A stretch of 61,307 bases of DNA, filler included, from Kipferlia bialata (taxonomy: Eukaryota): assembly GCA_003568945.1 (NCBI GenBank). It is 3 parts of 3 records of this genome, joined end to end, with 100 filler letters (N's around TTAATTAATTAA, not from the genome) between each part and the next. Parts side by side here need not be neighbours in the genome. Positions count along the whole stretch, not along the records: positions 1 to 20,375 come from BDIP01000379.1; positions 20,476 to 40,841 come from BDIP01000380.1; 1 more part is not named here. The stretch is one strand, 5' to 3'. The notes below the pieces were generated by a model. It saw only the letters and a program-made list of their open reading frames with translations. It was not told the origin of the DNA and did no database searches. Shown here piece by piece: positions 78 through 37,900 of the stretch (its first letter is position 1; each line of letters opens with the position of its first letter). Both the position numbers and the translations under genes were made by a program.

Positions 78-214
78 GTAGATAGGTGTCCTAACCGCTA
101 GCTCCTAGCAGCCCCTGGCTCTGCCCCCGTGCTTCACACCATGCTATAGATGTATACTATATACACTATATATACACTCTGCACACGAATGCCTTCACAG
201 AGTCTAACTCCTAG

Positions 215-3200
215 CTTCTAGCAGCCCCTGGCTCTGCCCCCCCGTGCTTCTCCCCCCAGGACGAGGTAGAGGGAGAGAGGGTACCAGTAGAGGTATATAG
301 TGTATGTGTATATGATGTGTAGAATTACTGTTTTATATTCTTATATCTAATTGTAATCTGATGAGATAGAGGGGGAGAGAGTGCCACTTTAGGTATCGAT
401 ATGTAGTAGTGTTGGACTGGTGTGAAATGTTTCTGACTATGCAAATGAAGGGATATTGAATTTTGGTGTGCTACAACATCCTCTCTCTCTCTACACCCTT
501 AACACCAGGGGTGAGACTCAGGAGGAGAGAGAGATTGACATTATCTTCTTCTCCTCCATATATTCATATATATTTGTGTATATATATACTTATACAATAT
601 ATCTTGCTTCCCCCTTAACACCAGGGTAGTTTATATGTATATATGCCAGAGCATATAATCCCTCTCTGCCTCTCTCTCTCTCTCTCTCGCTACACCCTTA
701 AATCCGGGGTGAGACCCAGGAGGGGAGAGAGATATCCTCCCTTCGTCGCCTTCTCTCCCTCTCTCTCTCTCCCTCTCCCTCTCTCTCTTTGCCCCCCTCT
801 CTATCTTATTACATCTTGTTCTCTCTCTCTACACCCATAAATCCAGGGTGAGACCCAGGAGGAGAGAGAGATTGATAGTGTCTTCTTCTCCATATATACA
901 TTTGTATTTATATATAGTATATATGTATATATGTCTTGCTACACCCTTAATTCCAGGGTGAGACCCAGGAGGAGAGAGAGATTGAGGCCCAGAGGCACAG
1001 AGAGGCCATACAGGCCAGAGTGAGGGACAAGATTGTGGCCAGGGCAGGTATCACTAATATACACTGTGTACATATATATAAGAATGTAATATAAATATAT
1101 ATGTATTTGGTATTATTTATCATTGGTTAGCCAGGCCAGAGTGAGGGACAAGATAGTGGCCAGGGCAGGTATAGCAAATATACATGTATGCATGTAATAC
1201 TACATTGAATTATATATGAATATAGTATTATATACATATATTGTACTACATTCACTTGACGATACCCTGCTGTTGCCATGGATATAAATATTTATATATA
1301 TCTAATGGTAGGCACTGCCCTTGACGATGCCCTTCTGTTGCCATATTGATATATATGTAAATATATATACATATTCCTTTAATATGTATGTGCATCATCT
1401 CAGGCACTGCCCTTGACGATGCCCTTCTCTTGCCATTTAGAATTATATACATATTCATACATATGTATATATTAGTATTCTATATATTCTATATATATCT
1501 CACCCCAGGCACTGCCCTAGATGATGCCCTGCTGTTGCATGTACACACACACACCCACACACACATACACACACACATATATATAGATATATGTATTGTC
1601 TTTGTTCTTAGACTCCAAGCTTATCTAATTGTAGGCCTGCTGTTGCCATGGATATACACATATACATATATATATATTAGTATTCTATATATATAGTTAT
1701 ATATCACCCCAGGCACTGCCCTTGACGATGCTCTGCTGTTGCCAGAGGGATATATATATATATATATAACCCCTATACATATGTGTATATATTCATACAT
1801 ATATATGTCATTTATGTCTCTGACTCCAGGCACTGCCCTGGACGATGCCCTTATGTTCCACACACACACATATATATATATAGATATATAGATAGTAGTA
1901 TATAGATAGTAGTATATATATAGAGATAGATATATGTATTGTCTCTGTTCTTAGACTCCAATCATATCTAATTGTAGGCACTGCCCTGGACGATGCCCTC
2001 CTATATGTCACTATTATGTATATATACCGAGTCCTCTCTCTATATATATCCTCTCTCTCTCTATATATATACCAGTCATGTCTAACCCTCTAGGCACTGC
2101 CCTTGACGATGCCCTTCTGTTGCCAGAGGGGTATGAGCTGTTGACAGGCACAGAGCTGGATAGGAGGTATATTAATACTATATACTATATACAATATACT
2201 ATATATTATATACTATATATATATATATATATTTTTTTTGTATAAGAGTAATAACATGATGGATGTACTATATACTGTCAGAGGGGTATGTTGACAGGGA
2301 CAGAGCTCGATAGGAGGTATATGCAGTGAATGTATACGATATAGTATTATATAACTCATAGGTATTAGGGGTATGAGCTGTGGACAGTCACAGAGCTAGA
2401 TAGGAGGCACTATATATATATAGGTATTTGTTAAACTCACCCCCAGTGAGATTGCTGTTCCTGAGGAGATCATCAACTGCATGTATATATGTATATGTAT
2501 ATATATATGTATTAGTATGCTTTGTGTCTATGTATGTGTATCTGAGTATATCCTCACCCCCAGTGAGATTGCTGTCCCTGAGGAGATCATCGAGCAGTAC
2601 ATCATACAGCCAGGGACAGAGGTACATAAGTATATATGGAGATGTATATATATATGTAAGTGTATATAGTATAGCTCGTGCGTATATATATGCATATCAT
2701 CGAGCAGTACATCATACAGCCAGAGACAGAGGTATGTAATTCACCACATATATGCTCTTTCTATTCTGTATATTATGTCGTTGTGTTTGTTTCAAGTGTA
2801 TTCCATCTCTCTCTCTCTCCGTCCCTCCCTCCTTACGCCTATTTTCTGTCTCTGTCGCTCTTATTTGTGCGTAGGTGTATATGTATGTCACCCACCCCCT
2901 CTCCTTACCCCAGGAGAGTATGCTTAGAGAGAGGGCCTGGAACGCAGTGCACAAGAGGTATGCATACAAAGCATATGATGTATATATTTTTGTGTATGTA
3001 CTGTATATACATAGTGTGTGTGTGTGTGGAACGCAGTGCACAAGAGGTATGCATGTTGATACAGCATGGTCATTGTATATATATCTTATGAATAGGGTAT
3101 ATGACGTGCCATCCAGAAGAGGCATGACATACTCTCCCTCCCCCTATCTCTCTCTCTATATATGTATATATGTATATATATACTTACCTGCTAGAGTGTA

Positions 3201-4379
3201 TGACCGTGCCATCCAGAAGAGACATGACAGGAGAGAGGCAGCCACATCGAGGGAGCAGCACAAGAGAGACAAGGAGAGAAATGCACAGGTACAGCTCTCT
3301 CTCTCTCTCTCTCTCTCCCCCGCTCTGTATATATACATGTATCAAGGAGAGAAATGCACAGATACATATGAGTACAGTTGTGCATGTCTGTTACTCTCTC
3401 TTGACATGTGTACTTTACTGAATTCGTCGCTCTCTCCCCCTCTACACCCTTCACTACTCACCCCAGGTCACTGTGGGGTTCTTCTTTCTCTCTCTCTCCC
3501 TCTACACCCTTTATTTCTCACCCCAGGTCACTGTGGGCGAGAGGGGCAGAGGCAGAGGCAGAGGGCGTGGAACGTACGTAATGTGTCATACATATTGGTA
3601 ATCTCGTGTTCCGTGCATGTGTTTAGATAATTCTTGCAAGTGTGACTATTCCATACTCTCCCTCCCATACTTCTAGCCGTACCCGCACTGGTGCCATTGC
3701 CCATTACCCCTAACTTGTGTATTTATTGATATATGCTTCAATGTGTATGTATCAGAATATGTCACTCCTCTTATACCTAGCCGCCAACGTGGAGAGTGCA
3801 AGGTATATAGTGATACTACTACACATTAATATATTACAGGTGTATATGTATATATATAGCATTAGTATATATGATATGGAGCATATACATGAGTGGGGTC
3901 ATGGATGCACCCAACGTGGAGAGTGCAAGGTATATATATCCATATATATATATGGATATTATGTATAATATATATATATGCTACAACGCGGAGAGTGTGC
4001 GAACATTGGCCCAACTATCCCCGGTATGCCAGACGATACTAGACCATTTATATATATATATGTGTGTGTGTGTGTATGCTATTATTGGCATCTCTCTAAC
4101 ACCCAGGGAGAGAGAGGCCACAGAGACTCCATGTATTCAATATATATATGTATATATATTGTATATATATATATATATATATATATAGTATGAGTGTTAC
4201 ATCCCATCTAACCCCCAGGGAGAGAGAGGCACAGAGACTCCATGTTCTACATATATATGTACATTCATTATATATATATATATATAGTTGGTGTATCATC
4301 TCTAACACCCAGGGAGAGAGAGGCCACAGAGGAGGTCGAGATGGAGATGGAGATGGATATGGAGTTCCTATTCAACTAG
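215..4379 (+). CDS. 3' part of a spliced gene; probable Brf1 (TFIIIB subunit)-like C-terminal region, 5' end off-contig
   Basis: Phase-consistent GT-AG exons at 215-292, 957-1047, 2094-2166, 2564-2621, 2914-2957, 3195-3288, 3527-~3573, ~3677-3693, 3781-3802 and 4313-4379 give ...SAPPCFSPQ...GTALDDALLLPEGYELLTGTELDRSEIAVPEEIIEQYIIQPGTEESMLRERAWNAVHKRVYDRAIQKR...EMDMEFLFN*. The PPxF motif and the 'EIxxYIxxxxExxxxxxxWxxxxxxY' pattern resemble Brf1 homology blocks. The gene is well supported; the Brf1 identity is by eye only. Confidence 0.5.
1254..2410 (+). repeat. Array of intronic copies of the splice-site/half-exon ends of exon 2094-2166
   Basis: AG|GCACTGCCCTNGAYGATGC copies at about 1311, 1403, 1508, 1712, 1829 and 1977, with partials at about 1254 and 1632. 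Exon-end/donor copies at about 2280-2320 and 2367-2408. Copies are separated by (TA)n/(CA)n tracts. Confidence 0.9.
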
Positions 4380-4656
4380 AGGAGCGTCTCGAGCGTCTTA
4401 GGGGTATGGGGCGTTTGGAGCATCACATGCCCCTCGATGTCTACACTATGGGTGTACTTCTCGCTTCTGTCTTCTTCTCTATCATATTCTTTATCGGTTT
4501 CGTGTCTTCTGGCTGTTTGTGATCTCACTTTCGTGTTGGTATTGTATTACCGTGTGTGTTTCTCTATGTGTGTTAATAGATAGGTGATATAGGTAATGTG
4601 TGGACTCTTTATGAAAGGGTATATGTTGCTCTTATACCACATGCCGTAATCAGTGA

Positions 4657-4856: not shown

Positions 4857-6257
4857 CTAGAAGTGCCAGTCCTCCCAGGCCACGCACCTCCTCTCCCTGC
4901 CCCTGCCCTGCTCTCTCTCTCTCTGGTACGGCTTGTAGGTGTGCTGCGCTGCTCTCTCTCTGTCACTCTCAAGCAGATCACCAAGACACCTAGCAGTAAG
5001 GGTTTCAAAAGGACATGTGTATAATATATACATGTACTTTTGATCCGGTATATTTAGGACACATAGGAAAGTTTCCGGGTTTTACCATGCCTGGTGTATA
5101 TGCAGGCATGCAAAATGCCTCCAACTCTAATGAGCCTATATGATATAGACTCATAGATAATAGTCTATATCATATAGACTCTATATAGTAAAGTGATTGT
5201 GACTATATACCTGGCAGAGGGGTCAATCTCTCTCTCCCTCTTCCTCACCCTCTTTGTCTCTGCCTCCCCCTCTTCCTCTTCATACTCTGCCTGGTAGGTC
5301 AGGGGCCCTATACCCGAGCCAGTCTCTGCTAGGGTTAGATATATGCAGGGATAATGAGTTTCACACACTATATGATATATAGGGTTAGATATATGCTGAG
5401 ATACAGATGTACATATCTAGATAGTAGCATACATACCAGAGAGAGTAACTGTCGGGTTAGACATATGCTGAGATATAGAGGTACATAAACTACATGTACA
5501 ACATATATAATAGAGGTACATATAGTATGTGTACTTCATATATATAGATTTACGATACATACCAGCCATAGTGAGTAGCTGCCTATACTTAGTGCCAACA
5601 GGTGCAGTCTCCTCCTCCCTAGAAGTGCTAGACTCCTCTAGGGGTGCTACAGAGGGAGAGAGAGTAGGTAGAGGGTGGCCCAGCCCTGTGACAGGGTGTG
5701 GATGGGGTGACAGGCGCAGGAGGATGTCCCTAGCTGTAGAGTACATGGCCTCGGGGGAGGGGTCTCTGCCCTAAAGTTAGTGTTATGGTCCATGTAATGA
5801 TACCAATATATATATTCACATATATATAATGAATTCCTATAGTCCATGTACTGGTACCATAGATGTCCTACACGTGTACCTCCATGAGTATGTCCATGTC
5901 CACTGGGCGGCATGGCTCCTCGGGGGCTGGGATGGGGCCTGAGTAAGCACGGAAGTACTCTACGAAGGCTCTAATTGCAATATTGGAATTGTGACAATGA
6001 TCCTGTAAAATGTGTATGCAAAGATTATGGTGTATGTGATGCTTGGCACACGGGAGGGACAATACCTGTGTCAGGTGCAGGGGAGGCACTCTCTCTTGCC
6101 GTGAGTCTCTCTGCCTCAGAGATGAACTCAGCTCTGATTGTCAGCTTATAGTATAGACCCTAGATATATGAATATATGAATCGTGGTGTATTTTTGTAGA
6201 AGATGCTGACATAGTCGTATGTACCTCCCCCCCTTGTCCATGGCCTCCTGCAGACCG

Positions 6258-6300
<43 letters not shown>

Positions 6301-9300
6301 TGGATAGATCATAGTGAATTCTTCTAGACGAGTCAAAGTATATGTGGGTTACCTCTCCCCCTTGTCCATGGCCTCCTGCAGAGCACTCTCCACAGCCTAA
6401 GGGTGAGTGAAGTAATTGTCACACAAATCCTCGGTAGTAGAAGAGACTATGCCTGTGGATCAGTCCCCAGAATGAGAGAGATCACATGTATGCAAATACT
6501 GGTTCAATGCGGAAGTCAGCGTATTAGTGACCATACCTCTTGGGCCTGCTCCAATGCAATACTGGTTGGTGGTCTGTCCCATAACTGCCTCATCTTCTGT
6601 TGGGTCTCTGCTACAGTAGAGACAACAGTAGGGGCATAGGTAGAAGCAGTAGGTGCAATGGTAGGTACAGTGGAGGGTAGGGGAGGGGCAGCGTGGTGTG
6701 GGGCCTGAGGTGAGGAAACAGAGTCCACTATTTGTAAAGAGTCATCACGACGCTACAGATGTGTATTGTCTTACCAGACAGGGGTGGTACCCCTTGGTCC
6801 ACCAGGCTGTTCCACAGGCATAGGTATCTATATATATCATAAGCTGTACTCATGATATCAATGTATAGGAGTTGCAATTATAGTACAATTACCATACCAG
6901 ACTGCGGTGATTCCCCTGTCAACCAGGCTGTTCCACATAGAGTATATAGTACATTGTATATATAGTATATAGTTGTTCAGCATTATAGTAACATCAATTA
7001 CTTAGGTATCCTCACCAGGCTGGGGTGGTACCCCCCTGTCCACCAGGCCGGGCCCCACTGCATGTCGGAGGGGTCCTGGGGGTTAGTGGCACTCCTAAGT
7101 ACCAGTACCATATCTGGTATATACTACCCACTGCATGTCGGAGGGGTCCTGGGGGTTAGGAAAGGGTCCCAAGTATATGCATATAGGTATACACAAATAT
7201 GCGAATAGGATCGCGATGGGTACGGAGAGACAGTGTCATGTAAGTGATATATATACTTATATATACTCATTCACCTGATCCCTATAGTCCACCACTGCCT
7301 TGGGTGCCTCCTCGGGTGTGAGACTCAGGGTGGAGGTGTCGAGGGGGACAAGGTCCGGCATCTGATGGTTAGAGTAGTATCTATATGTATCTCTATTATG
7401 ATGGTTAGAGGTTCGAATACGGAAATTGAATTACACTCAGTGTAATGGTTCTTCCTTCGGTTGCGAAATATCGACTATATATGGAACACAAACTCTGTAC
7501 CTCTGGGATCATCTCTCAAAATCTCACATACTTTCGCCATAGTGTATATTGTTATATATATTAAGAATGTATTACTATATATGATACATTTAGAATATCG
7601 TATATACTTTCTACCTCTGGTATCATCACCTCTATCTCATGTCAGATAGCAATTTTAACATAGGTTCAGTCATATGTACGTATACATATATATATGTGTG
7701 GGTATATACTATACACTGTACCTCTGGCATCATGGCCTCTATCTCATGTCTCTTCTGGTCATAGGTCTCGGCACTGGGGTGAGACAACATATGCAGAATA
7801 GTGTCCAAAGTATACCTTATTTAGAATGGAGAATCCAACAGTATAATTCTACCTCTACATATGCTTGAGAATACATCTCTTCTGTCATATGTCTTTGCAA
7901 AGGTGTGGAACAGAAAACGTAGGAGTCTGTATAGAACTCATCCGTGAAAGATATACTATCTATATACATATCTATGTCATATAGAGAGGGACTCGACTGT
8001 ATTAGAGTTGTTATGTACATGAATAAGTACCTCTCCCTCTGGTGCCCCTCCAGCCACCAGATGGCATTGTACACACGGTGCATGGCGGCCTTCCTCTGGG
8101 CCTGAGTATTAATAACACTTAGAAACTATAGTGGTGACCCCTTATATGAAATACATATACCTCTGGTATTGTGCTGCCTGGTGTCTGTATTCGACTTCTC
8201 AGACCATAGAGCAGGAGGTCCAGCTCGGTCTTGGCCTGCATATGAGATAATATTATATATATAGATACATACATATGTGTTGGTACATGAAGTATGTTAA
8301 ACTCTATGGTCGTAGAGCAGGAGGTCCAGCTCGGCCTTGACCTGGGGTAAGAGAGAGAGACAGAGCAGGATTCTGGAACATTCATACCCTCCTGTTTTAC
8401 TACTGGATATTGTATATAGGCCATACACTATATAGCCCATAGGATTGCATTCTGTACCTGGTGCCTGACCCTGACCTTGGCCAGCAGGGTCTTGTTGGCC
8501 AGGACCTAGGATGTGGGTTGCGTATATGGGAAAAATATTGGTTAATAATAATAATATGTTGGCCAGGACCTAGGGGTGAGGCATCTACATAACGTAAAAT
8601 ACATGGGATATGTCGCTAATAAATGTACCTGTTCAGCTGTGGGTGCCGATGGCTCTAAGAAGCTTGCAGGTCTCCCAATGCCGTATCCTGAGTGTAAGGG
8701 TTACACACTGATATATATATATATATATATACTCAATTATGACTCTCTACACCACATACATCCTGTAGTAGAGAGAGGGAGTTTCTCCCGATGCCGTATC
8801 CTATGGGTGTCAGATGCATATAGATACCATATATTGACTCTATAATAGAGACAGAAAGGGAGAGAGAGAAGGAAAACTAGGGTTGCGGTGTCCAGTGGCC
8901 ATATTACTCAAATACCCACAGGAGAGAGGGATAAGAGGGTAGGAGTATACAATGTATACTATACATATATACTAATAATCTATTGTATAGAGTGTATATA
9001 CCTTGTGCCCCAATACCAGCTGCCCTGGTGTAGTCCTGGTAGGACGGGACGGGGGGGACCTGGGGGTAAGTCATATACACACATAGGGAATATGGTCATA
9101 GTATAGGCCTCTCTCAGACACATATGTGCTTCTGTGTATTCTTGATAGCAGGGGACGGGGGGGGGCTAAAGGTTAGTTGATTGGATACATGGTATATATA
9201 TAGTCATAATGAAACACGTGCACATAGGGGACTGGGGTGAAGATAACTATCTGTAGATGTTAAATGGATATAGTACTATTATATACTTTGAGTTTTATTG

Positions 9301-9532
9301 CAGCCTGTGTATATATATTGTATGTAAGTAGGGCTTACGTTAGTCAGTATATCACACCTTGGGCTTTGGTGCAGTAATATATACACTGCATATATTTGTA
9401 TTAATTATACACAGTATGCAAGTGTACCTTTGGCTTAGGCTTAGGCCTGGCCAGGTCACGTGGCATGTATCTCTTGTCTACTCTGCCATCACCCGTCATG
9501 TGCAACCCCTCACGACCCCTGCGCAGTGACAT
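4857..9532 (-). CDS. Multi-exon hypothetical protein containing an Hsp70 C-terminal (lid/SBD-alpha)-like segment followed by a Pro/Ser-rich low-complexity region
   Basis: ATG at 9532 (MSLRRGREGLHMTGDGRVDKRYMPRD...). Exons at about 8458-8506, 8162-8236, 8031-8101 and 7721-7773 give VRVRHQAKTELDLLLYGLRSRIQTPGSTIPEAQRKAAMHRVYNAIWWLEGHQRESAETYDQKRHEIEAMM, matching the Hsp70 pattern AKNxLESYxxxxR...WLDxNQxAxxEEFxxKxxELE. Last exon ends AWEDWHF* at 4857. Confidence 0.6.
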
Positions 9533-10171: not shown

Positions 10172-10430
10172 ATGGTGAGTGTTGTGCATCTTACACTCAG
10201 CTGCTCTGGTGTATGCCTCTACCGTAACACACATGCATTTATTTGTATATGTATGCATTGTAAGAGAGGATCATATCTGGTGATCTTGTGTGGTTGTGGA
10301 AACGTACTGCTGTCACTGTCTCCCCCCCCCCACCCCATCCTCTTCCCTCAGTCCCTCCCAGCCCCCGCCATTCAGCGTATCACCAGAGATGTCCGCTCTC
10401 TGATGCGGTCACCCCCAGAGGGAATCGAGG
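10172..10430 (+). CDS. 5' end of a ubiquitin-conjugating enzyme E2 (UBE2S-like); the rest of the gene is not found
   Basis: ATG|gtgagt at 10172, then exon 10352-10430 SLPAPAIQRITRDVRSLMRSPPEGIE, the typical E2 helix-1/PPxGI start. No in-phase continuation with GPxGTPY or HPN...C follows. Confidence 0.55.
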
Positions 10431-10569
10431 GTGGGTATATATGGGTATATGTGTATCTTGGATTGAGAGATCTACTATCTCTTCGACTCTAATTGCCGTC
10501 TCAGCTCTTACTGAGGGGGGTTGTCTGCTGCTTCATTTCACTCTTCACATAGTAGAGTTTAGGTCCCAG

Positions 10570-10605
<36 letters not shown>

Positions 10606-11595
10606 CCACCCCACCCCAGGATGAGGTGCCCCCTGAGTTCCGCCTCTACATGGTGAGTACACGGTGTGGCCTGGTCTGGCTCTGATCGGTCATCTAAGAT
10701 GACTCATCTTCACTTCATCAATTGTGTACTTCTGCATCTCTCTCTGGTTCCACGGTCCTGTAATTTTCCTATTCTCATTCCTGTCCTTCCCTCACCTTCA
10801 GGACAAGAAGAAGCCTGTCGACAACACTCAGATGTAATGAGCGAGCCAGTATTCTCAGTCCAGTGTTTTTGCTGCAATGGACGTGGGACAATGACCTATG
10901 GGTACCCTTTTGTCTGCTGGGTATCCCACAGGTACATACATACCCCGTTCCGTATTGGGAACTGTTCCATCACTAGTATGTGTGAGTGTATGGTCCATGG
11001 TGTGTCATTTTGTATTCTATCACGGGTTGCCTAGGGTTAAGAGACAGAGTATCGCTATCAGTGTAGATGTGTTGGTACCATCTCCCAGTCACTAAATACT
11101 ACCTGTGTGTCGTGTGGTCTGATTTGATTCGTGAAGGGTGATCATCTACAACCACTCAATATATAGATAGGAAGGGTCCTCCACGGGTGTGGTGTCAGAA
11201 GTCTTCCAGCACGATGTCATTGAGCAGTTATGCATCAGTCTTGCAATGAATCAGCCTCAGGAGACCTGGCTTCCACCTTCAATTATAGGCCTTTTATCGT
11301 GCTCCTCCTAGCCTCGCTCTCTCTCTATCTCTACAGGGCACGATAAAGCGCCACAAATATTGTTTCTGTTGTTCTTGTGGGTATGCACCCAATGTGAACT
11401 TACGCGAGAGGCCGTGTCGTGTTTACAGTGTCAGGTTTGAGTCCAGAAGTTAGTTTTCGACTCGAAATTCGAGTGTCTTTCAAAAACATCTACACCCTTT
11501 CTCCACTCGGTAATGCCGGGTAACAGCGAGCTTAACAGAGAGTGCCTAGGAAATCCACATGCTGACTTCGTCTTCTTCAGGGCCAGAGGCAGGGT

Positions 11596-14500
11596 ATGGC
11601 TGACACAGCCACACAGTTCCAATGCCCCTGTGGGGCGTTCTTTACCGACTGGGCTGGGTATTCAGAGCATGCTGTGGGGTGTGTGGGTACACACACATCA
11701 GAGGTGGAGGAGGTACTCCTGCCAGTGTTCCGGAGCCTTCCTCTGTCAGACATCACCAAGTATACCATCGGGTACGACAGAGTTACTCAGAAGATGGATA
11801 GGAGGCATCCCTTCCACGTAGCTGTGTGGGAGTGCCTGCAGGAGGGGGGTCTTGACCCTGTCCTCTACGGGGGTCTGGGCACCGTCTTTGCCTCGCCCTC
11901 CTCCGACATGGACATCGCAGTGCGGTCTGGCTCATTCATGGACATCAAGATACAGCTTGCGTGTGGCGAGTTAGGTGCAGAGGTCCTCGACATCGGTCGT
12001 CATGCGGAGAGCCGGGATAGGCGACATCTCAAGGTGGGCGCACCCAGTCCAGTACTGTCACACTCTCTATTATGTGTGTCATGCTCACTCTCCCTTGTGG
12101 ATGTATAATCTACTCATTGCTGGATCCAGAGTAATACCAGGGAGTTTTCATTACTCCATATATACTCGATGGAGCTGCGACTCTGGTCGTCTCATCCCTA
12201 ATATGTCCACTATATATCCTATATAGGTGGTCCACTATATATCCTATATAGGTGTCTGTATGTGTGTTCTCCTCTGTGTCTTGGAATATATATGTATATT
12301 AATGTATATATATATATAGTAGACTCTGTTTTCTTTTGGCACCTGTCCCACCCAAGCTGAGCTCCCCCCCCGCCATGTCCCCCAATACCCACGTTGACAT
12401 AGTGTTGGCATCAGACAACAACGGGCCCCAGAAGCGTCAGGTATATGTATGTAGAGTCTCATACCTCTTTCTACTTCTCGGATGAATCTCTGGCTTGCTA
12501 TACTAGTGAGAATGGTCAGTGTCCATCATATTGCCCCTCAAGAGTCCTTCACTGTATCCAACCCATCTATTGTGCAGAGGTCAACGCTCACGCCAGCTGT
12601 TTCTCAACTATGCCACCGTGCTCCCCGTGCTGCCTCAGGTCAAGACCGTCCTCAAGACCCTGGCCTGCCACACCCACTGCCTGGCACCAGGTGGGGGGGG
12701 GGGTGTATGTGCTATGTATATTCACACACACATATATATATTTACATTACTCACTGTCTGACTCCAGGTAACAGGGGTCAGAGAGACACGGAGAGAAATG
12801 CCTCTGAACTCCTGCATAACAGTATGTGGGCACTGGCCAGTGTGTGTCCGGTTCTGCACCCCCCATCGCTGTGTGGCACTCTCTCCCCTGATGTGCGCCG
12901 CAGCCTCCTGTCCGCCGTGGCCCATGCCTTCGATGCGTCCAGTCGGGATGCCCTCATGCGAGGTGTGATGCAGGCGTGGTGCGCATACAACAGCCCTGCC
13001 AGGGTGCAGCAGATGCAGAAGAGGTGTGTTGTGACTGGAACCCCCCTCCAGCACCCTCTGTCACACACCCTCCCCCCCGGCCTGCAGGCCTTGGTGTCTC
13101 CCCTCTACAAGGGTCTCACAGAGGGGGTCGGGGTCCCTGCCCTGGCCACCCGCCTCAGGTATATGTGGCAGTGTCTGTGTCTGTGTCTGCAATATGTATA
13201 CTGTCGATGCTGATACTGACGCCTCAGGGCAGCCAAGCAGGCCAGGGACAGACACCTCATCACCCAGGCGGCACTTGCTGCGGAGTCTGCCCGCAGTGCC
13301 AGGATTAGGGAGTACACGCTGCAGCTGCAATACATTCAGGCCACGATGGCGAGTCCCAAGCTCCGCAAGTGGTTCTCTTCTCCCAAGGCGGTGAGACACG
13401 TGCGGCAGCTGCTGGGACGGAGGGCCCAGTCGCTGAGAGGCACCCTGGCTGACCTCAGCGCAGAGCCTTGCAAGGCCAGGGGTCCATCCAGCCCTGCGCT
13501 CCAGATGTCCCAGAGCAAGGTGAAGCAACTGGCCAGAGAGGCCTCTAACACCGCTGCCCCTCAGGGAGTATCATGTGAGTGTCCCTGTGGCCAGGTGTCA
13601 GCACCACTGTACACTGTGGTTGCCGGCTCAGAGGCTGCAGGGGCAGAGGCGTCCAAGACCAAGACCAAGACCAAGAGGGGGTGCACAGGCCGTGGGTCAG
13701 ACCTGTGTCAGAGTCAGGTGGTACACTATACACTCCCACTGTGCCCCGCTGGGATTCTATCCTGTACTGTATATTGGTGTTCTGTTGATACCGATGCTGA
13801 TACTCCCACAGTGCCCAAGGCTGATGTTCTGATACTGATACTGACTGTTGCACTCCACAGTCAACCTGTATCTCACCCCAGACGCCCAAGGGCCAGTGTC
13901 AGTATCAGTCTCGCTCCCCTGGAGGATCAGAACCAGGGTCCTGTATTGGTGCCGAGAGGGAGAGAGAGGAGCGGGACAGCCTAGTTGCCTCATACCTTGC
14001 AGCCGACAGGGCCCGGGACTCCCTGGTGCGACAGTTGCACCACCAGCGTACCAGGCTCTCCGCCCTCAGGGATGCCAAGCACGGGTTCCCCACTGCACAC
14101 GAGCGTGCCAGCCGAGACCACCTGAGGGGTGTAGTGTCTGGACTGGAGCGCCACCTGAACAGGACGGTGGGGCAGCAGGATGAGCAGAGGAAGAGACACC
14201 CCTGGCTGAGGCAGGCGGTGAGGGAGGCACAGGGGAGGGAGAGGGAGAGGGAGAGGGAGAGGGAGAGGGAGAGAGAGGCCAAGGCCTATCGCAAGAGTAA
14301 GGTGCCCCGTGCCTCTCAGCATAGGGGCACCTCCGGGACTGCTCCCACCTTCACCGGCCTAGTACGAGTACCTCCTGTGCAGGCCAGGCAACCCACACCT
14401 GCACTGCCTGCACCTGCACTGCCTACACATGAAGTGGACCAGACCCACCAGGGCCAGACAGACCAGGGCCAAGGGCCTGGGTCGAAGGGTCTAGGCCACC

Positions 14501-20375: not shown

Positions 20376-20475
20376 NNNNNNNNNNNNNNNNNNNNNNNNN
20401 NNNNNNNNNNNNNNNNNNNTTAATTAATTAANNNNNNNNNNNNNNNNNNNNNNNNNNNNNNNNNNNNNNNNNNNN
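20376..20475. other. Artificial scaffold-concatenation linker
   Basis: 44 N + TTAATTAATTAA (stops in all six frames) + 44 N. Confidence 0.95.
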
Positions 20476-26006: not shown

Positions 26007-26043
<37 letters not shown>

Positions 26044-26325: not shown

Positions 26326-26364
<39 letters not shown>

Positions 26365-28607
26365 CATATACTATACCTGAGTTCTGTGCAGCATGTGCTG
26401 GACAGGTACCAAGTCTCTCTCTCTCTCTCTCTCCCTTATTAAATAATGTTTTGCAGGATGTGCTGGGCAGGTAGGGGCACATTCTATGTCACTATTTTTC
26501 TCTCTCTCCCCCCCCCTCTCCCCCCTGTATACGTCTCTCTCTCGACTGTTCCGGATTGTCTAGGGATATATCTTGTCGTTTAATGTCCTGAGCTTACTCT
26601 CTCCCATCTTTCTTTCTCTCTCACTCTAAGAGTTGCTCCATCTGAGGCCGATACTCTCTCTCTCTCTCTCTCTCTCTCTCCCCCCCCCCTCTCCCCCTCA
26701 TGTTTTAGGGTTGCCTCTGAGCACATCACTGCCCCCTCTGAGGCCGATCATGTCCTGATAGACATGGCCCTCAGGGATAGACAGGCAGCCATACTCACAG
26801 GGGACACAGACATGTGTAAGGTTTGTACATAGATACACATATAGATACATTAGTATTATATATATTCATGATATGTAGCACATTCTAGATATGTGCTAGG
26901 TGAGTGTGTGAATGTCAATCCACTCCCCCCTCCTCCCTCCTTTCACCCAGGTAGCCACCACCGTTGTATGGGCCAAGACCCTGTATAAGACACTGCTCTC
27001 TCTCAAGGGTGGAGAGACAGAGAGCGCGAGGGTATCAGTCACAGACAGCAGGAGTGGCAAGGTTAAGAAACTGTTGCACGAGTATCACCAGGTATAGTAG
27101 CAACTCGTACTGTATGGATATAGTGTTTTCCTCTATACATCTAACCCCCAGCCCCGTGTCACCTCTGTCACTGTTAGTCCACCCCCTGTATACACCCACC
27201 AGATGACAGGGAGACCCCTGCCACACTCATTTTTATCGGTGCTCAGACAGGGTATGTGCATACATCTTTCATTCATGCACATGTATATTGTATATGTGCA
27301 AGTACGTCCCCCCCTCAGTTACTAACAATATAGGCCTCATGTCCAACACCCTTGCAGACCTTGTGGCCCAGGGCATAGCCACCAACCAGCCTGGCATAGA
27401 GTGCACGGGGCTCCACTCACCTTGCACCGCAGTCAATGTCAGGTGCACACTCAATATTGGGCATACTTATGGCACTTTGAATCATGCTAACCTTCGTACC
27501 TAACCCTCAGAATGTACACCAACCTAGCCAACATGTGTCTGTGCACTGGACCCCTCATACCCCCAGGGGCATCTATTACCATAGGGTCCTACCTAGGCCG
27601 GCAGCCAGATAGTATCCACGTCCCATTGACAGGCACATGTACAGCTGTGTCTAACAAGGGGAAGATGGTAGAGACCCGTCTACCCACCTTCACTGATATA
27701 TACCCTGAGACTGGTACATTGAATACCAGTCATAGGGATAGGTTTGTGTGTCTGGCTGCCTTGGGTAGTATGGACACAGACTATATGGACAGAGTAAGGG
27801 ACCCATACGACATACAGCGCACACTGCTTCTGTCCATAGTGGCTAGGGAGGTACTTGATGGTGGTATTGCACCCTACAGGTTGCTGTCCTTGGCCATGCT
27901 CCTAGGGGGTGTGAAGCCAATAGATGGTGCATACAGAGTGACTGAGGCCGATACCTCCACCTATGCTCTGCTCAACGTGTGTCTGCCTATAGTCAGGGCA
28001 TACCTCTCAATGGGACCGGACAGGTACCTAGTCTGCTAATACAGTATACACACTGTACATATATAGTGTCGTACTGACCCCCAGATACACCCCTGCCCTC
28101 TACCCCTCCTGTGACCACCGGACATGTCTGGCTCTCAGTGCTCAGGTAGATCACATTCTACATATTTATGTATATCCATATATATACGTATATATCCATG
28201 TTCATTATTTACCCAGGTTCGCACTGAGGCACCAGAGCTCTGCCAGTTGCAACCATACTCGGTACATGAGCTGTATGCAGCACTGACCAGATGCATGAAC
28301 AGGACTGCAATGACTGGATGGGAGAATCTGCATTTGGATAGCATACCCTTGTTTGCCAGTGTAGTGAAGGAATACCCTTGAGAGCCTGAGGATAGGGTCT
28401 TTGAATGAGCAGACCTTCACTCTGCGGAGGTTGGCTCCCCTAATGGTCCATGCACAACTGAGGTTCCATAGTGATAGAATAGGGACAAAGTGTAGGTCTT
28501 CAGAACCATCCCTGATGTCCTTGGCTGCACTCGATGCTAGTGGTCTTGGTGTCTCTTTCGTAAACGATATGCACATGGATCCACTAGACTGCAAGGACTA
28601 CAGCTGA
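25579..28607 (+). CDS. Asteroid/XPG-FEN1-family PIN-domain nuclease; apparent frameshift near 28370
   Basis: MGIRGFYGAL...LLVDLSAL...VVVVKDG...EADHVL...AAILTGDTD are the XPG-N/XPG-I motifs, with a long Asteroid-like C-terminus. Confidence 0.65.
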
Positions 28608-28946: not shown

Positions 28947-31900
28947 TCAGCGCCTCCTGCCCTTGTGCTCGTGTAGACACTGCTCACAGACCTTGACCCT
29001 GGGGTGAGGGCAGAGTAGTATCATTGAATACATACATATATATATATATGTGAATATACACACAATGCTACTTACTGTACACTGACCTTGTGTACCCCAG
29101 GTCTGGCAGGTCCACCACATGGCTGCAACACTTGGAGCACAGCACCCTCCCACAGGCACGGCAGTGGTGGCGTCTACAGTGAGTAAGTACGTGACAAGCA
29201 AGGGAGTAGACAATTGACCAACCTGTTTAGGAACTTGCCAAATGCCACACCGCACTCTGGACACACTAGCATGTTGGCATTGATCTCCCACTGGGGGCGG
29301 AGGCCCACCTAGGTGTTAGAACATACATGCATACACTAATACATATTGGAGTGTGGTATACAGTATAGTACAGGAAGGGTATGGTACCTGCTCCCTTGTG
29401 ACCCCCTTCCCCCTCCCGCCCATGCCCTGCAGAGTGGCAGTGTCTCTGTCTAGGAGAGAGTCAACCCTGACAGTCAGAGAGAGAATGATTCCACTATATA
29501 CTATATACCCTACACAATCAGTATATACATATACAACTATACCTCCCCATGACGTCGTCCATGGCACTGGTGATGCCCTAAGCACATACATAACCACTAT
29601 ATATACATATATACTCTATATACACTACACTACTGTATGTACCTCCCCATGACGTCGTCCATGGCACTGGTGATGCCCCTCAGATAGGGTGCAGGGGTGA
29701 AGGGTACAGGGGATGCACTGAGTGGGGAGGCAGGGGTGTCTGGGACCACAGGCTCTCTTAGTAACTGACATGCAGAGGCACCCCCAGAGACAGCGGAGAG
29801 GTCGAGGACTGACACAAACCTACAGGTTAGGAGGGGTAGATGGAGACGGAGAGAGAGAGAGACAGCGGAGTGGTCCAGGACAGAGACGAACCTGGGGTAA
29901 ACAGAGTAAAGACAGTCATGGAACGAAGTATATATATGATATAGAGAAGAAGCGGAGGGAGACCAAGTGGAAGGGAGAAAGAGAGCAGGACAGGGTATGG
30001 CTATGTACCTAGCGATGTCTGGTGGGAACAGGGACGGGACGGGGTAGAGCTGATGGCCAACCTGGGGGTGAGGGTGCATATATATAGAGCGCAGAAAACA
30101 GTCCTTTGCATATATATACACTCATTTACATCAACAATAATACCTTCACCAGCCTCTCACACCCAGCTGCATAGAGCAGGACTAGCTTGACAAGGGCAGG
30201 GCCTGTGATGGCACGGGAGTCAGCTGGAGTCAGTGAGAGATATATATATATATATGGACTAGTGTACAGTATATACTATGTATACCTTCCATCTCGTCCT
30301 CACTGCACTCTGCCCCTTCGTTGCCCTCTCCCTCTCCCTCGGTCACACCCACTACCCCAGCCACGCATATGGCAGCCAGGTATGCCACGGGTGGGACACC
30401 AGCCCCGTCTGTGGCATCGGGGTCGGCACCTGCAGCCTAGGGTTAGAGTGAGAGAGAGAGAAAGAGGGAGAGAGAGAGAGAGAGAGAGAGCTGAAGCATC
30501 GGGGTCGGCACTGGCAGCCCAGGGTGAGAGAGAGAGAGAGAGAGAGGGGGGGAATGCAATAGTACTCTTAGTAAGATAGAGAGAGACGTACCAGCAGCGC
30601 TGCAAACACAGTGGGACTGCCTGTTAGGGCTGCCACGTGCAGAGGGGTGAGTCCAAACTCATTGGAGGCACCGACGGCACCGGTGATGGCTGAGCCTGGG
30701 GGGGTGAGGGAGGGGAAAGAAGGGGTTGAGCGAAGGGGGACTCGCTACAAATATCTATAGTAATCATACTATTGTATATGTCTATACCTAGTCTGAGCAA
30801 GCTGAGCAGCCCCCTGACTGCCTCCTTGTCCTCTGGCACAGCATCACATATATATACATAGTGTAGTATATATACGTGTATGTCTATACCTAGTCTCAAC
30901 AGACTCAGTAACCCCCTGACTGCCTCCTTGTCCTCTGGCACAGCATCACATATATACATATACATAGTAGTATNNNNNNNNNNNNNNNNNNNNNNNNNNN
31001 NNNNNNNNNNNNNNNNNNNNNNNNNNNNNNNNNNNNNGTCTCAACAGACTTAAGAGTCCTCTCACTGCCTCCTTGTCCTCTGGCACAGCATCGCCCAGGG
31101 CACCGTGGGTCTTGGTCTTGCACTTGGTCTGGGGGTGAGACACCAAGGTATATACAGCTAGATCTGATATATATATATGAAATCAGGTCGCGTTGCTTGG
31201 TCTGGGGGTCAGGCACATATGTATATGTATATATATGAAGTGACAGGATAGTGTTTAGAATTGTGGGTCTTGGTCTGGCACTTGGTCTAGAGGTGAGTCA
31301 GGGAGTATTACACACATAGCAGTTATAGATACACCCGATATTAGAAGTGAGTGACAGTGTATAGAATTGTGGGTCTTGGTCTTGGTCTTGCACTTGGTCT
31401 GGGGGTCAGCCATTAAGGAATATGATACAGGTATATATACACACACACATACTATATATGGATACACCCATACCTCCATTGTGACGCTGTCCACGTGTCT
31501 CAGCAGTGCAATCAGCCACACCCTGGCGGCATCAAGCAGTCTGAAGGGGTAAGGAGGGAGAGAGAAAGAGGAGAAGAAATACATAGTATCCAGCAGTCTG
31601 AAAGGGGTCAGAAGGGGGAGAGAGAGTGAGGGAAAATGAACATGAATACAATCAATATAGACTTCATTAGTATATATTCATATACATCCAGCAGTCTAGG
31701 GGTCAGAGGGGAGAAGTGGAGTGGGTGTAGCAGAGATAAGAATATATATATATACCTTCCAGCCTCCTTGACCGCATCCTCAATCTCAAATGCATCACTG
31801 TCCTCATACTATCTATGACACATATACACTAATTAGTGTATATATATATATATATATGAATATGCATATATACCTCCCGGCCTCCTTGACCGCGTCTTCA

Positions 31901-32695
31901 ATCTCAAATGCATCACTGTCCTCATACTATCTATAACACATATATACTAGTTAGTGTATATATATATATATATACATACCTCCCGGCCTCCTTAACCGCA
32001 TCCTCAATCTCAAATGCATCGCTGTCCTCATCGCTGAAGGTGTCATAGATGTCAAGGTCATCGGCCGCTAGGCCAAACCTGGGTGTGGGTGTGAATTATT
32101 TATTAATTATTACAATGCTATAGACATATTCAGCACTCTATCTATAGTGTTATATATATATACAGTGTATACACTAACAGTGGCACATACCTCAGCAGCA
32201 GGGGCAGCAGGGACAGCTCAAACACAGAGTCAACGGCACAGCGCCTGGGGTCAGGGGGACACACATACATACACATACATACATAAGCATCAGCGTATGG
32301 CTCTGGGTATATGTACCTTGGAATGAGTGCGCGCCTCTCCTCCGGTGTCTCCCCCCACCCCCCTGCCTTAGTCACACACTGTGTGTGACAGGGGGTGGGG
32401 CACCCACAGGACTGCGTGGCACGCTCACACTCCCTGGCGTCCTGGGGTTCGAGAGATCTACATACATACACATATACATGAGTATACATACTGTACCCAC
32501 CTGATCCCCGACCCAGTTGACCAATGGCAGTATGAGGGATGCCACTGGGAAGGGAATGGCAGTGTCGGAGTCGTGTCTGGGGGTGGGGAGAGACATAACA
32601 AAGAGAGAGAGATGACATAGGAGAGCATGCACTACAAATCATCCCCACCCACCTTCCCTCTCCCTCCCCGTGCCATGCTATGTCGTCCACACGGG

Positions 32696-32738
<43 letters not shown>

Positions 32739-33878
32739 CACCAGATGCAAGGTACACCCACCTACTATCCCCGTTTCCATGTCCTGCTATGTCGTCCACA
32801 CTGTATCTGCTGTAGCTGGAGGGCACACAGCGCAGCACCTGGGGTGTCAGCACAAGAGTTTACATATATGTCTAGATTGTGAAGGTGTCGACACACTAGT
32901 GTGCATAGTAACTAGTAACTACATACGTATATTCCTGTGTGTGTGTGTCGCTGGGGGTGCAAAACAGTGTGTATATATACATACCTGCGTGTGTGTGTCC
33001 CTAGTGCATAACAGTATCCAAGTGTGCAATGTATAGAATACAGTGTATATATACATAAGTATACTTGCGTATGTGTGTCCCTGGTGCATGGCAGGTAGTG
33101 GTAGGGCACATTCCCGTCTGAGTCTCTGGCCGATGTGCCCTCTCCCAGTGTCCTCCTCCTGGCCACACTGGCACCGGCCTCCATCCCTACCTCACCCCCG
33201 GAGAAGGTGTCAGCTAGGAGTTAGGGGTACATATTCACATATATACTTACATACATAAGTATTAGAGATAGAGACACAGTACCTAGTAGCGATATGACGT
33301 CTCGGGGTGTGATGACAGCACTTGAGGCTGGGTATACTACACATACAATATATATATATATATACCAGGGGGGAGTGATATATAGTACCTAGTAGGGATA
33401 TGACGTCTGGGGGTGTGATGACAGCACTTGATGCTGAGGTGGGTGAGAAGGAGAGGTCACTGGCCCTCTCCTTGTCCCTCTCTGCCATCTCAGCCCTGAG
33501 GGCCTCAGCAACAGACATCTAGGGGTGATAAGGGGTGTAGGGAGAGAGAGAGAGGAAGAGAGAGTTTGTGTGTGAGAAAGATATACTCACACACACCCCC
33601 TACCTGAGGGGAGAGTGAAAGTGACCCCCTCCTGGACTGTCTGGGGGATGGGGAGTGGAGGAGGTTGGACAGGGAGTCTGAGACACCCTGCATCTGTCGG
33701 TCCTGGGTATGAGTATACACAAAGAATATATATATTATATACAGAATAGTACTTCATGGGGCATCGTACCAGGCTACCCTGTGCTGAGTCTGTCCCCTCT
33801 CTCTCCTTGCCCTGTGCCTTGTCAGATGGTCTGGATTGGCCATCTCCATAGGACTGGGCCTGGGTTAGGTATGTGTAT

Positions 33879-33917
<39 letters not shown>

Positions 33918-34149
33918 TAGAGGGTCATGCTTGAATGCGTATGATACCTCTGCCGACCCACAGTCCAGTGCGAGGACATGGATCAAGGGCACACGGACCT
34001 GGGGGGTCAGGGGACACGGAGGGAAGGAGAGAGAGAGAGGGAGAGAGTGTGTTACCCACCCTAGGCTCTGGGTGGCATATGATGGACACAAAGGCAGCTG
34101 GGAGGCAGTGGAAGGGGCGGATGACACTGAGGGTAAGAGGGCGCCATAT

Positions 34150-34189
<40 letters not shown>

Positions 34190-34288
34190 TCATAGGTATA
34201 CCTGTTGGGGCTGTCGAAGAGTGCGTTGTGGGTATCGTCACCAATCTCCACCTCAGACCCACACAGCCACCTGGATGTTAAGGGTGTA

Positions 34289-34326
<38 letters not shown>

Positions 34327-34935
34327 CTGATGGACCTCTGGGACTGTACCTCCTTGCACCGGGTATAGAGCTCACTGGAGGTAAGGAGGGGGTCGTGACA
34401 AGGTGTGACAAGGTGTGTATGGACATGTACCTGTAGTATCTGCACCCAGCCAGTATGCCGCACTCCTCTGCGAATGTCCTCCTCCTCAGCAGATCATCGG
34501 TCAGCTTGGTCTCGCCTAAAGGTCAGTGATGCGAATGAACAACAATACAAGTATATAATGGTACATACGTATATAGTGGATCCTCAGTCAGCTTGGTCTC
34601 GCCTAGGGGGTCAGATATACAGCGTAGACGAATAGGGTGCTATAGAACTAGGTCTGGGGGGTCCGGGAGGAGACGGGTGTATAGGTATAGAGTGAGATGT
34701 TAGGTATTCCCCTACCTAGCAGGGCCAGCGTCCATACATGTACATGTAGGGTGTCATCTACTTTGTAGAATAACATGTATCATAATGTATCATAAAACAA
34801 CAGACTCCCTGTACCTAGGAGGGCCAGGGTCCTCCTGTCAAACCCTGATGCAGCGGCATATGCACAGGCACGACGCAGCTGACCTCTGGCATACTTGAGA
34901 ACCTTTGGTCAGAGAGAGAAACGGAAAGAGAGAGG

Positions 34936-34968
<33 letters not shown>

Positions 34969-37900
34969 CCGTACCAGTGCCTCCAGCTCTGCAAAGGCCA
35001 AGGAGGTGCCCGACCCCTGGGACAGACCGGTCACCTGGGGTTAGGATGCATATAAATACCATTAGAGATGCAACTTATACTACTATTTACTATTCATGGA
35101 ACACCCACCTTTGCCAGCGTGTCATACTCGACGTGTCTGAACGAGTCCCTCAGGGTTGGGAAGTATGTGGTGCTGATGGTCTCCATCAACATACGGACAA
35201 CGTCAGACAGGCCGTTTCTAGGGGTTAGAGAGAGGTAGATAGATAGATATATATATAGAGAGAGAGAGAGAGAGTATACCTTGCTGCCAGGATAGCCAGG
35301 TGTGGTAGAAGGGTGGTGCGGCGCATGCCCAGGACCTGTTGGTCGGGGTCACTCTGCATGACCTAGGGGTGAGGGAGGGAGTATGTCTACCCACTATTAC
35401 AATAACTATGCATATATACATTTAGGTAGTGACATACCTTTGGCTTGTTCCTCTGTCTCCTGACGGCAGAGTATGTAGCGATGGAGAGAGAGGAGGCAAG
35501 CTTGGAGGCAAGGGCGGCTGTCTCCTCATTGGGCTGTGCATCACCCTCTCCCTCTCCCTCTCCCTCTCCCTCTGCCTCCTCCTCCTCCTCTTCCTCTGTG
35601 ATAGGCTGTGCCTGTACGACATGCATGACAGTACTGGATGGTACACAGCTGAGACCAGAGGCGTAGGAGCTGTACCCGCTGAAGGAGGCCCAGCCATCCT
35701 GGGGGTAAGGGAGAGGGAGAGAGAGAGTGTGTGAGAGTCATACTAAATATATACATATACCATATGTACAATTAGTATACCTCTAGTGCCTGTTCCGACA
35801 GACTGTGCTTGTCCACGCACTCTGCCAGTACCCTCAGGTGGTAGCTGTCCAGGATGCCAGAGAGAGAGGGACCGTCCATCTGACAGTCAGAGACGAAGTC
35901 TATACACTGACCTAACTAAACACAATGATTAGATGTTAGAGAAGTACTATCGCTAGTATATCTGGAAATTCACACTAGTGGTACCTGCAGGTGTCGGAGT
36001 GGTCCCTGTATCTCCTGCAGGAGGGGTATCTTGGCAAAGACACCCAGCTGGGCAGAGAGGTGGCCTGCAGCAGCCAGCATCTCGACAGACCTGGCAGTCT
36101 CTGAGGGTGAGGGGGAGAGTAGGACAGGGGTGGTATGTATAGAGAGTAAGTATAGGGAGGATATGTATACATATGTGTATATATAGTCACCTGCTATGGG
36201 CCTTCTGGCCTGGCACAGGTAGGACAGAGGGGTGTTACCGGTGGCATCAATCCAGCCAACTATCACCCTGGGGTTAGGTGGAGAGGAAAAGAGTAGCAGT
36301 AGGCCTATAGGAAAGTGTACCTGACGTCTGCTGTGCCGCAGCTGTTGATCATTCTGACCAGGGTCTATTAATGTATCTATCTCTCTATGTATCTCTCTAT
36401 ATATACGTGTATATCCATACCTGACGTCTGCTGTGCCGCAGCTGTTGATCATCCTGACCAGGGGCTCAAGACACACATCACTGTAGGGGTGAGAGAGGGA
36501 TGTATCAGTGTGTATATAGATACTGATACTGGTACTAGGGTGATTGTATGGCAGGCCTACTAGTGATAGTGTACCTAGGGGGCCTGGTCTCCTCTCCCTT
36601 GGCCTGTCTGTCGATGCAGGCACACCTGGGGTGGGGGGAGAGAGATACCTTGCATAGTCCACAAGTGTCTGCTATACATACATATACATACATATATACA
36701 CATACTAGTATATGTATATATACAAATACGCATACCTAGCATAGTCCACCAGGGGCACTGAAGAGATATGTGCTCGGGTGTTGTCATACATCAGCACACA
36801 TATATATACATCCCCCTCTCTCTCTCTATATATATATATATATGTACATGCATACATAAATGCATACCTAGCATAGTCCACCAGGGGCACTGATGAGATA
36901 TGTGCTCGGGTGTTGTCATACATCAGCACATATATATATACATCCCCCCCCCTCTCTCTCTCTATATATATATATATATACATGCATACCTAGCATAGTC
37001 CACCAGGGGCACCCAGGGGAGGGGCAGCGAGGTGGGCTGCCAGGCAGGCATCACGGTGTCACCCCTGAGGCCTAGGATGGGGGTGGAGTCTCCAGATATA
37101 CTGCACACATACAGCAAACATCACAATGGTACACCACTCCATATGGATGTTACCTAGCAATGCTGGGAACTCTGCGATGTTGCCTGCACAGCTGGAGCCA
37201 TCGGGGGTGATCCTGAGGGGTGAGAGAGACGACATATACAACAGGTCTGGGGGTGATGTAAAGTCTGTACTATTGACTATACCTGGGAGGGAGTGAGAGG
37301 GATGAGAGCTGGCTGGCTGCAATGTGCAAGGGTGTCCTGTGCAGCTTGTCAGTGAGGGCAAGGACAGCGGTCACAGGGGCAGCAAGGGTGCCTGGGGGTG
37401 GTAAACACACATATAGTATACAGTATAAAGAATATATAACATTCACATTATAGATAGGTTTAATATAGTGACAGGGGCAGCCAGGGTGCCTGGGGGTGGT
37501 ATATGCAATATACATACTGATTCAACAATGCTCGATAGACCATGATTCTCTATACTAATGATCATTGAATCAGTATATCCCTACCTGTGAACTGGCCAGA
37601 GATGAGGGCATCACAGACCTGGAGGTCAGAGAAGACAGTACAGACACACATATATATAGAGAATTGGCACAACACTCGAGGCAACTAATACTGATTGGTG
37701 TGAGAGTCACCGTACCTCAGTCAGTAGCTCCACACTGCTAGAGTAGACAGCACAGTGCAGCACTGACCTGGGGTAAGGGAGAGATAATGATCATGGCAAC
37801 AAAACCCACAGTACGGACACTACTATTATACAAAGAGAGATACATAGGCCTCACCCGAAGTACTCTGACACAGCCAGCACATTGTCAAAGGGCAGCAGCA

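Follow-up and report, generated by a model that had tools for sequence, protein, structure and literature searches.

Half-exon copies beside splice sites in Kipferlia bialata introns share the anatomy of amphioxus mirages and, in two of four genes, differ from their exons mainly at silent positions

Introduction

Introns of a few lancelet (amphioxus) genes contain "mirages", tandem duplications across a 5' or 3' exon-intron boundary, in units of 10-160 bp, that often keep the AG or GT of the splice site; they have been described in Adh3, the globin genes BflGb6 and BflGb9, troponin C and PGBD5 (PMC3087553, PMC3902484). As presented in these papers, mirages leave normal splicing intact and arise by an unclear mechanism, and unequal or intra-strand crossing-over has been proposed for changes in their length. 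The units in BflGb6 are 81-100% identical and show concerted evolution (PMC3087553). Mirages may also vary in copy number between haplotypes or be somatically unstable. We describe structures of this kind, which we call exon echoes, in four genes of Kipferlia bialata, a free-living fornicate among the metamonad protists. Each echo is an intronic copy of one splice site and the adjoining part of an exon. The DNA that we analyzed, referred to as the window, is a stretch of 61,307 nt from the genome of this species.

Other known systems share parts of this anatomy. Intron gain by the model of Rogers (cited in PMC3087553) likewise involves a short intragenic tandem duplication with splice signals, but there a duplicated exonic AGGT gives rise to a new intron, whereas AGGT is contained in one of 55 Kipferlia echoes and no new intron results. 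Paralogous macronuclear-destined sequences of ciliates are also local, partial coding copies, possibly used alternately, and they need programmed rearrangement between germline and soma (PMC9797194). Kipferlia echoes, unlike these, are anchored at splice sites, and no rearranged DNA joint or branch was found in 1.2 kb of contigs, which drop rare forms. Tandem exon duplication, as in mutually exclusive exons, produces adjacent, translated copies with a full pair of splice sites and silent-biased divergence; Kipferlia echoes have one splice site and are skipped where RNA was examined.

The anatomy of echoes is already known from mirages, themselves little studied, and an earlier note on this DNA, which knew of no description of such a system, was mistaken in that respect. 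The silent-only divergence described below is not explained in the available text of the two mirage papers (PMC3087553, PMC3902484), and PMC3087553 nowhere uses the word "synonymous". In the literature covered, with supplements and most subscription journals outside it, we found no paper on Kipferlia echoes, on silent-biased mirages, on mirages in a protist, or on diverged flanks that keep strong splice signals.

Results

The window joins three scaffolds (1-20375, 20476-40841 and 40942-61307), and we analyzed four gene models in it, with 82 introns and 165 exon ends (Table 1). Two exons are 100% identical to the annotated K. bialata proteins P0001 and P0002. Reading frames of genes 2 and 4 were taken from P0002 and P0001 with two corrections: an echo annotated as an exon was dropped from gene 4, and one donor in gene 2 was shifted by 12 nt, in phase. 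Frames of genes 1 and 3 rest on continuity of the open reading frame over 9 and 11 GT-AG exons, respectively; no annotated protein was found for gene 1, and a homologue search with its last exon gave no match. Each exon was aligned to both flanking introns and matches with a score of at least 26 were kept, and the level expected by chance was estimated from non-adjacent exon-intron pairs at the same threshold. Short echoes at 1635, 31201, 31597 and 31695 score below the threshold and are outside the counts, and three doubtful matches (7899, 26443 and 32954, jointly 4 synonymous and 1 nonsynonymous differences) are included.

The echoes are real and are anchored at exon ends. There were 55 matches across the four genes, in 36 adjacent exon-intron pairs versus the 2.3 expected from non-adjacent pairs, and echoes were present in 30 of the 82 introns and at 35 of the 165 exon ends. 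Matches upstream of their exon start at its 5' end in 26 of 28 cases (acceptor copies), and those downstream end at its 3' end in 26 of 27 (donor copies). Overall, 52 of the 55 adjoin an exon end in the expected polarity, and none has the opposite polarity. AG is retained in 22 of 26 acceptor echoes and GT in 23 of 26 donor echoes. Each echo covers a single exon end; acceptor and donor never occur on the same copy. The earlier note had reported half-exon copies in four genes, each with one splice site and distinct from a normal cassette exon, and both observations were borne out. Self-alignment confirmed the repeats where it had placed them, and the echoes run past the limit that it had set at 37052, to 37501. 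Duplication of a whole exon followed by decay, which allows either polarity, was rejected on the basis of the polarity.

The placement of echoes is regular within introns and patchy among genes. Donor echoes precede acceptor echoes in all six introns in which both types were scored. Units, measured between the real splice site and its copy, are 64-158 nt long (median 106). An intron is longer by about 120 nt per echo, and introns free of echoes have a median length of 82 nt. Some array units are 82-87% alike by self-alignment, compared with 81-100% in mirages; the units at 481-627 and 820-959 in gene 1, for example, are 82% alike. In the six remaining gene regions, none of the 102 strong acceptors has a copy upstream. 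TA runs number 0-0.7 per kb in echo-poor gene regions versus 1.7-5.1 per kb otherwise, and the TA-run content of introns with echoes is greater than that of other introns (0.108 versus 0.066, P=0.002). Like mirages, Kipferlia echoes span one exon-intron boundary head to tail, with both types of boundary copied; unlike mirages, they are found in a metamonad protist, affect many exon ends, and are often single copies.

Differences between echo and exon are mostly synonymous. Of the 478 codons aligned, 66 differ synonymously and 25 nonsynonymously, and the other 387 are identical; there are six indels in addition. The ratio of nonsynonymous to synonymous differences per site (pN/pS) is 0.14-0.20, a range set by the assumed transition bias. 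Control alignments in shifted frames gave 6 synonymous and 86 nonsynonymous differences (+1) and 10 and 81 (+2). Four-fold sites differ at 42 of 219 positions (19%) and second codon positions at 13 of 478 (2.7%).

The synonymous excess was significant against a stringent null. The earlier note had taken three-quarters of random changes to be nonsynonymous, which is too lenient; the appropriate comparison is of a constrained exon with a decaying copy, for which about 45% of the differences, not 25%, should be synonymous. The observed 66 of 91 still rejects this null (P about 1e-7). In simulations of a neutral copy and a constrained exon, with the same detection and trimming, the synonymous share was 0.36-0.47, and the observed share was 0.725. 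The excess was robust to removal of the four richest echoes (45/70, P=0.001-0.004), to use of the nearest echoes alone (40/59), and to counting unique events (57/82). It is confined to genes 1 and 4 (56 synonymous and 11 nonsynonymous; 18/5 and 38/6, respectively), for which the silent bias has firm statistical support.

Echoes of the same exon also differ from each other mostly at silent positions. Within arrays, 18 of 29 variable codons are synonymous (P=2e-4 versus a neutral share of 0.29), and in the two clearest arrays, each with one common junction, all of the echo-echo changes are synonymous (5/5 and 4/4). The two echoes of exon 31128 have 5 and 8 codon changes relative to the exon, synonymous throughout; four codons are changed twice and still encode Leu. 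CpG hypermutation was rejected as the source of the silent changes, as only 9 of 70 synonymous differences are of the CpG type. Synonymous changes are 22 GC>AT and 26 AT>GC and nonsynonymous changes are 13 and 5, a difference in direction that is merely suggestive (P=0.095). These comparisons of aligned codons support the view that echo sequences were shaped by protein-level selection.

The intron flanks of echoes appear to have diverged to about the same extent as silent sites. Over the 40 nt beside echo and real splice sites, the mean ungapped identity is 47%, versus 30-36% for unrelated introns, and 19 of 50 flanks are at or above the 95th percentile of unrelated introns. Most flanks are as unlike as unrelated introns, which, together with the silent bias of the exon parts, distinguishes these echoes from mirages. 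When flanks were simulated with as many indels as substitutions, the share that passed this percentile was 96-100% if each branch had diverged by 3% and 44-57% if by 9%. By these simulations, flank divergence agrees with that expected from four-fold sites plus indels and is far above that expected from second codon positions, unless indels outnumber substitutions several-fold. Splice signals of echoes were comparable to those of the real sites, with median acceptor scores of 8.6 versus 10.6 (P=0.14) and median donor scores of 7.1 versus 6.2 (P=0.28). Silent sites and flanks together suggest a long separate history with protection of both amino acids and splice signals, and we infer that two working copies diverged, rather than a working copy and a dead one.

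Tandem linkage of the echoes is real in the stretch of gene 4 that we compared with read contigs. This DNA was found in two runs of one sample, and contigs were compared over 31038-32260 alone (1,223 bases). Run X1 may be the source sample of the assembly, so it provides an additional assembly but no independent sample. None of the runs listed is recorded as RNA, and run X2 was treated as RNA on the basis of its CT..AC joints. A DNA contig covering 31063-31809 (747 nt) is unbranched, has no differences from the window, and contains six echoes, contiguous as in mirages, and parts of two real exons at a depth of 503, versus 461 in the neighbouring contig. The only two differences listed in run X1 are a neighbouring echo aligned on its twin. 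In this stretch the tandem copies are genuine DNA and not tiled haplotypes, which supports the earlier note. No DNA joint or branch crosses the six echoes in these contigs, from which one joint row at the repeats had been dropped. No paralogous exon contig was found over 31038-32260 at 85% likeness, a weak argument against donors at other genomic sites.

Splicing bypasses the echoes in this stretch, as it does mirages. The single RNA contig contains four exons, exclusively the main ones, and with no differing letters it carries no echo sequence. Its joint 31128-31474 (CT..AC) passes over three echoes, and it places 31542 beside 31990 (inferred from record positions, with 8 expected letters), skipping four more. 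In all, seven echoes in two introns are skipped, through one joint that was listed and one that was inferred.

Discussion

With confidence only a little better than even, we believe that the echoes are tandem intronic copies of a splice junction and half an exon that were renewed and increased in number when strongly divergent working alleles of the gene recombined unequally with them. An echo would be seeded when about 100 nt spanning one splice site is duplicated, and the duplication would be tolerated because the outermost donor and acceptor remain in use; this geometry would put acceptor copies upstream and donor copies downstream. The population would hold alleles with strongly diverged introns and about 19% four-fold divergence, so that the exon piece would be the sole good homology. 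If an echo then paired out of register with the homologue's exon end, crossing-over would give one product in which the echo is promoted to working status and lost as an echo, and another in which the working splice site and exon end of the second allele enter the echo position and the array grows. Echoes of this origin would be young as dead sequence and old as allelic lineages.

Several arrays have a common junction and common sequence beyond it (30947/30845, 31925/31807, 36890/36758, 31398/31286 and 4107/4219), indicating that each grew from one seed. Echo 30947 is a mosaic that matches the other echo of its exon on the junction side and the real exon on the splice-site side. The common junctions and the mosaic fit unequal exchange. 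Metamonads are described as having no canonical non-homologous end joining (NHEJ), relying on homologous recombination, and keeping meiotic genes (PMC8516963). Among the models offered in the earlier note, microsatellite-driven recombination of divergent alleles fits best, with the amendments that the homology is the exon piece and that the role of microsatellites is only a correlation. Its suggestion that echoes are or recently were translated may stand in the sense that they derive from a working allele; current translation is unsupported, with seven echoes skipped in RNA and 3 of 34 units in frame and stop-free.

A number of observations weigh against exchange with diverged alleles. Run X1 shows no second allele in 31038-32260, and two metagenome scans gave no relative; with no second allele or strain, hyperdiversity is deduced from the echoes themselves. 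Sex is stated never to have been observed in metamonads (PMC8516963). Genes 2 and 3 have no synonymous excess over a dead copy (10 synonymous and 14 nonsynonymous; 8/12 and 2/2, respectively) and fit ordinary dead copies. The synonymous share between echoes is marginal against the 0.45 null (P=0.05). Outer echoes are not, as the model predicts, more decayed than inner ones (26 synonymous and 6 nonsynonymous versus 40 and 19). The predicted pile-up of nonsynonymous differences on the junction side is absent from trimmed alignments (P=0.38), being visible solely in untrimmed ones, where overrun inflates it. Finally, 64-79% of flanks simulated at 3% divergence still pass when indels are three times as numerous as substitutions, so very fast microsatellite slippage narrows the argument from flanks.

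One-sided homologous repair is an unlikely alternative that requires the same diverged alleles and no prior duplication. A broken exon end would copy the exon end and intron of a diverged homologue, and a non-homologous join would leave the old half exon behind; the term one-sided invasion is in use for such repair. This accounts for the polarity of echoes and for single, near-identical echoes with unrelated flanks (36366, 29578 and 8339); in echo 29578, 36 nt are identical to the exon and the flank departs from position +4 on. The absence of canonical NHEJ from metamonads and the patchy presence of alternative end joining (PMC8516963) are compatible with it. It predicts a separate truncation point for each echo, whereas the arrays have common junctions, although such repair could supply the seeds of arrays.

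It is quite unlikely that the echoes are ordinary mirages, that is, dead duplicates within a single lineage whose apparent bias reflects faster silent evolution of the exon, slippage in introns, and a few extreme arrays. The anatomy agrees with that of mirages (PMC3087553), the most similar units and the results for genes 2 and 3 are as expected for dead copies, and introns with echoes are richer in TA runs. However, the simulations reached a synonymous share of at most 0.47, and the excess survived the removal of the richest echoes and the restriction to nearest echoes or unique events. CpG-type changes are few, and the four codons that changed twice remained Leu. Conversion from intron to exon within one lineage was rejected by reasoning, as it would be unable to bring pN/pS below about 0.5.

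Current use of the echoes, with selection maintained by DNA pop-out or conversion in some cells or by non-canonical splicing, we regard as very unlikely. Both the small pN and the preserved splice signals would follow directly from it, and rare forms would be compatible with the data, since contigs drop rare variants and they lack one joint row at the repeats. The contigs show no joint or branch over six echoes and no differing letter in the RNA, few units are in frame and stop-free, and AGGT is nearly absent; on these grounds the earlier note's model of non-canonical splicing is unsupported. Moreover, pop-out deletes the echo, so one lineage would be unable to keep both versions. We give still less credence, as a highly improbable case, to a splice-junction replacement system in which silent half-exon cassettes would take the exon position by active exchange at the DNA level within living lineages, with the cassettes under protein-level selection and turnover of whole intron ends.

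An assembly artefact, in which haplotypes or strains were tiled in tandem, is extremely unlikely and for 31063-31809 largely refuted: the genome is a short-read draft of 11,563 contigs (PMC8516963) assembled with SPAdes (PMC5874029), one echo array adjoins an N gap, the median unit is near short-read length, and run X1 is possibly the assembly's own sample, but the separate contig carries the same path, unbranched, at the depth of its neighbour and with no half-depth bubble, and the array at 1255-2002, most echoes of which stop near one common exon position, has at least five distinct acceptor flanks, more than two haplotypes could provide.

If exchange with diverged alleles is correct, one genome would store several past alleles for each affected exon end, and recombination would be recorded in a group in which sex has never been observed. 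The recombination and diversity of a metamonad may then become testable from a single genome. The model would also provide a testable mechanism for the long-unexplained mirages, which would be expected most often where species are hyperdiverse and have short introns. There is in addition a question of splicing, namely how up to eight strong decoy acceptors are passed over by a spliceosome that is reduced, with 87 of its 174 proteins found (PMC6679479).

Table 1. Genes and echoes in the window. Single numbers are echo positions; S, synonymous and N, nonsynonymous differences between echo and exon.
Feature	Gene	Position	Strand	Remarks
Gene 1	1	215-4522	+	5'-truncated by scaffold end; 9 exons; 22 echo matches, 18 S/5 N
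Exons of gene 1	1	215-265, 957-1047, 2094-2166, 2564-2621, 2914-2957, 3195-3288, 3527-3573, 3781-3802, 4313-4522	+
Acceptor echo of exon 215	1	91-140	+
Array of acceptor echoes of exon 957	1	481-956	+	510, 708, 847
Donor echo of exon 957-1047	1	1132-1170	+
Array of acceptor echoes of exon 2094	1	1255-2002	+	8 echoes: 7 scored, 1 short
Pair of donor echoes of exon 2094 followed by an acceptor echo of exon 2564	1	2276-2474	+
Other single or paired echoes	1	2696-4236	+	2696, 3027, 3097, 3343, 3911, 4107, 4219
Gene 2 (KIPB_002338, P0002)	2	4860-9499	-	No Pfam match; 10 echo matches, 8 S/12 N
Gene 3	3	25579-28381	+	11 exons; 3 echo matches, in intron 26303-26708; 2 S/2 N
Gene 4 (KIPB_002343, P0001)	4	28950-40073	-	Ankyrin repeats and FYVE; 50 exons; 20 echo matches, 38 S/6 N
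Echoes	4	29543-30518	-	29578, 29891, 30518
Two donor echoes of exon 31128	4	30788-30947	-	One common junction
Intron with acceptor echoes	4	31129-31473	-	31398, 31286, 31201
Intron with donor echoes	4	31541-31979	-	31925-31874, 31807-31756; 4 S/0 N each
Short acceptor echoes	4	within 31541-31979	-	31695, 31597; after both donor echoes
Echoes	4	32659-34733	-	32692, 32954 (doubtful), 33014, 33330, 34602, 34733
Donor echo	4	36366-36321	-	46 nt long with one synonymous change; its donor flank bears no relation to that of the exon
Three donor echoes of exon 37071	4		-	36890, 36758, 36665; within 36321-36890
Acceptor echo of exon 37391	4	37468-37501	-

Other features of the window

Echoes mislead annotation, and the public model of P0001 takes one as an exon. 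It splices the real exon into echo 30947-30890, and the protein consequently repeats KEAVRGLL (30890-31050, minus strand). The end of the true exon falls within the N gap at 30974-31037, next to this echo.

Further copies resemble echoes in part. At 26634-26652 (plus strand) there is an acceptor-side echo of exon 26709 with an apparent internal deletion and two synonymous changes. The segment 4730-4763 (minus strand) copies 4862-4895, where the last exon of gene 2 ends; it lies past the stop codon and has no splice site. The third scaffold has one donor-side copy, at 46525-46566 (plus strand), in which about 22 nt are identical to the exon end and the donor GT is lost; exon and copy together span 46486-46566.

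The protein of gene 3 begins with MGIRGFYG and carries an EAD motif, features that we take to recall the XPG/FEN1 nuclease family. Pfam scans of single exons of gene 3 gave no match, and XPG is reported to be absent from Fornicata (PMC8516963).

The three scaffolds are unrelated and are linked by artificial spacers at 20376-20475 and 40842-40941, each of 44 N, 12 bases and 44 N. A match to Acyl_transf_3 at 41810-42709 (plus strand) is weak and under the curated cut-off. A very large gene at 48560-60420 (plus strand) encodes an FG-GAP repeat protein (PF14312) and has multi-kb exons and short introns without echoes. Zinc knuckles of the CCHC type (PF00098) are encoded close to the end of a long gene at 10387-19000 (plus strand), which is also free of echoes; around 11900 it has what looks by eye like an SDMD motif of the nucleotidyltransferase kind, without a Pfam match, and it is possibly similar to terminal uridylyltransferases. 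An exact 55-nt duplication at 15804-15912 flanks a gap of 3 N and is probably a scaffolding artefact, and a coding tandem repeat at 16595-16810 consists of about 14 units of 15 nt.

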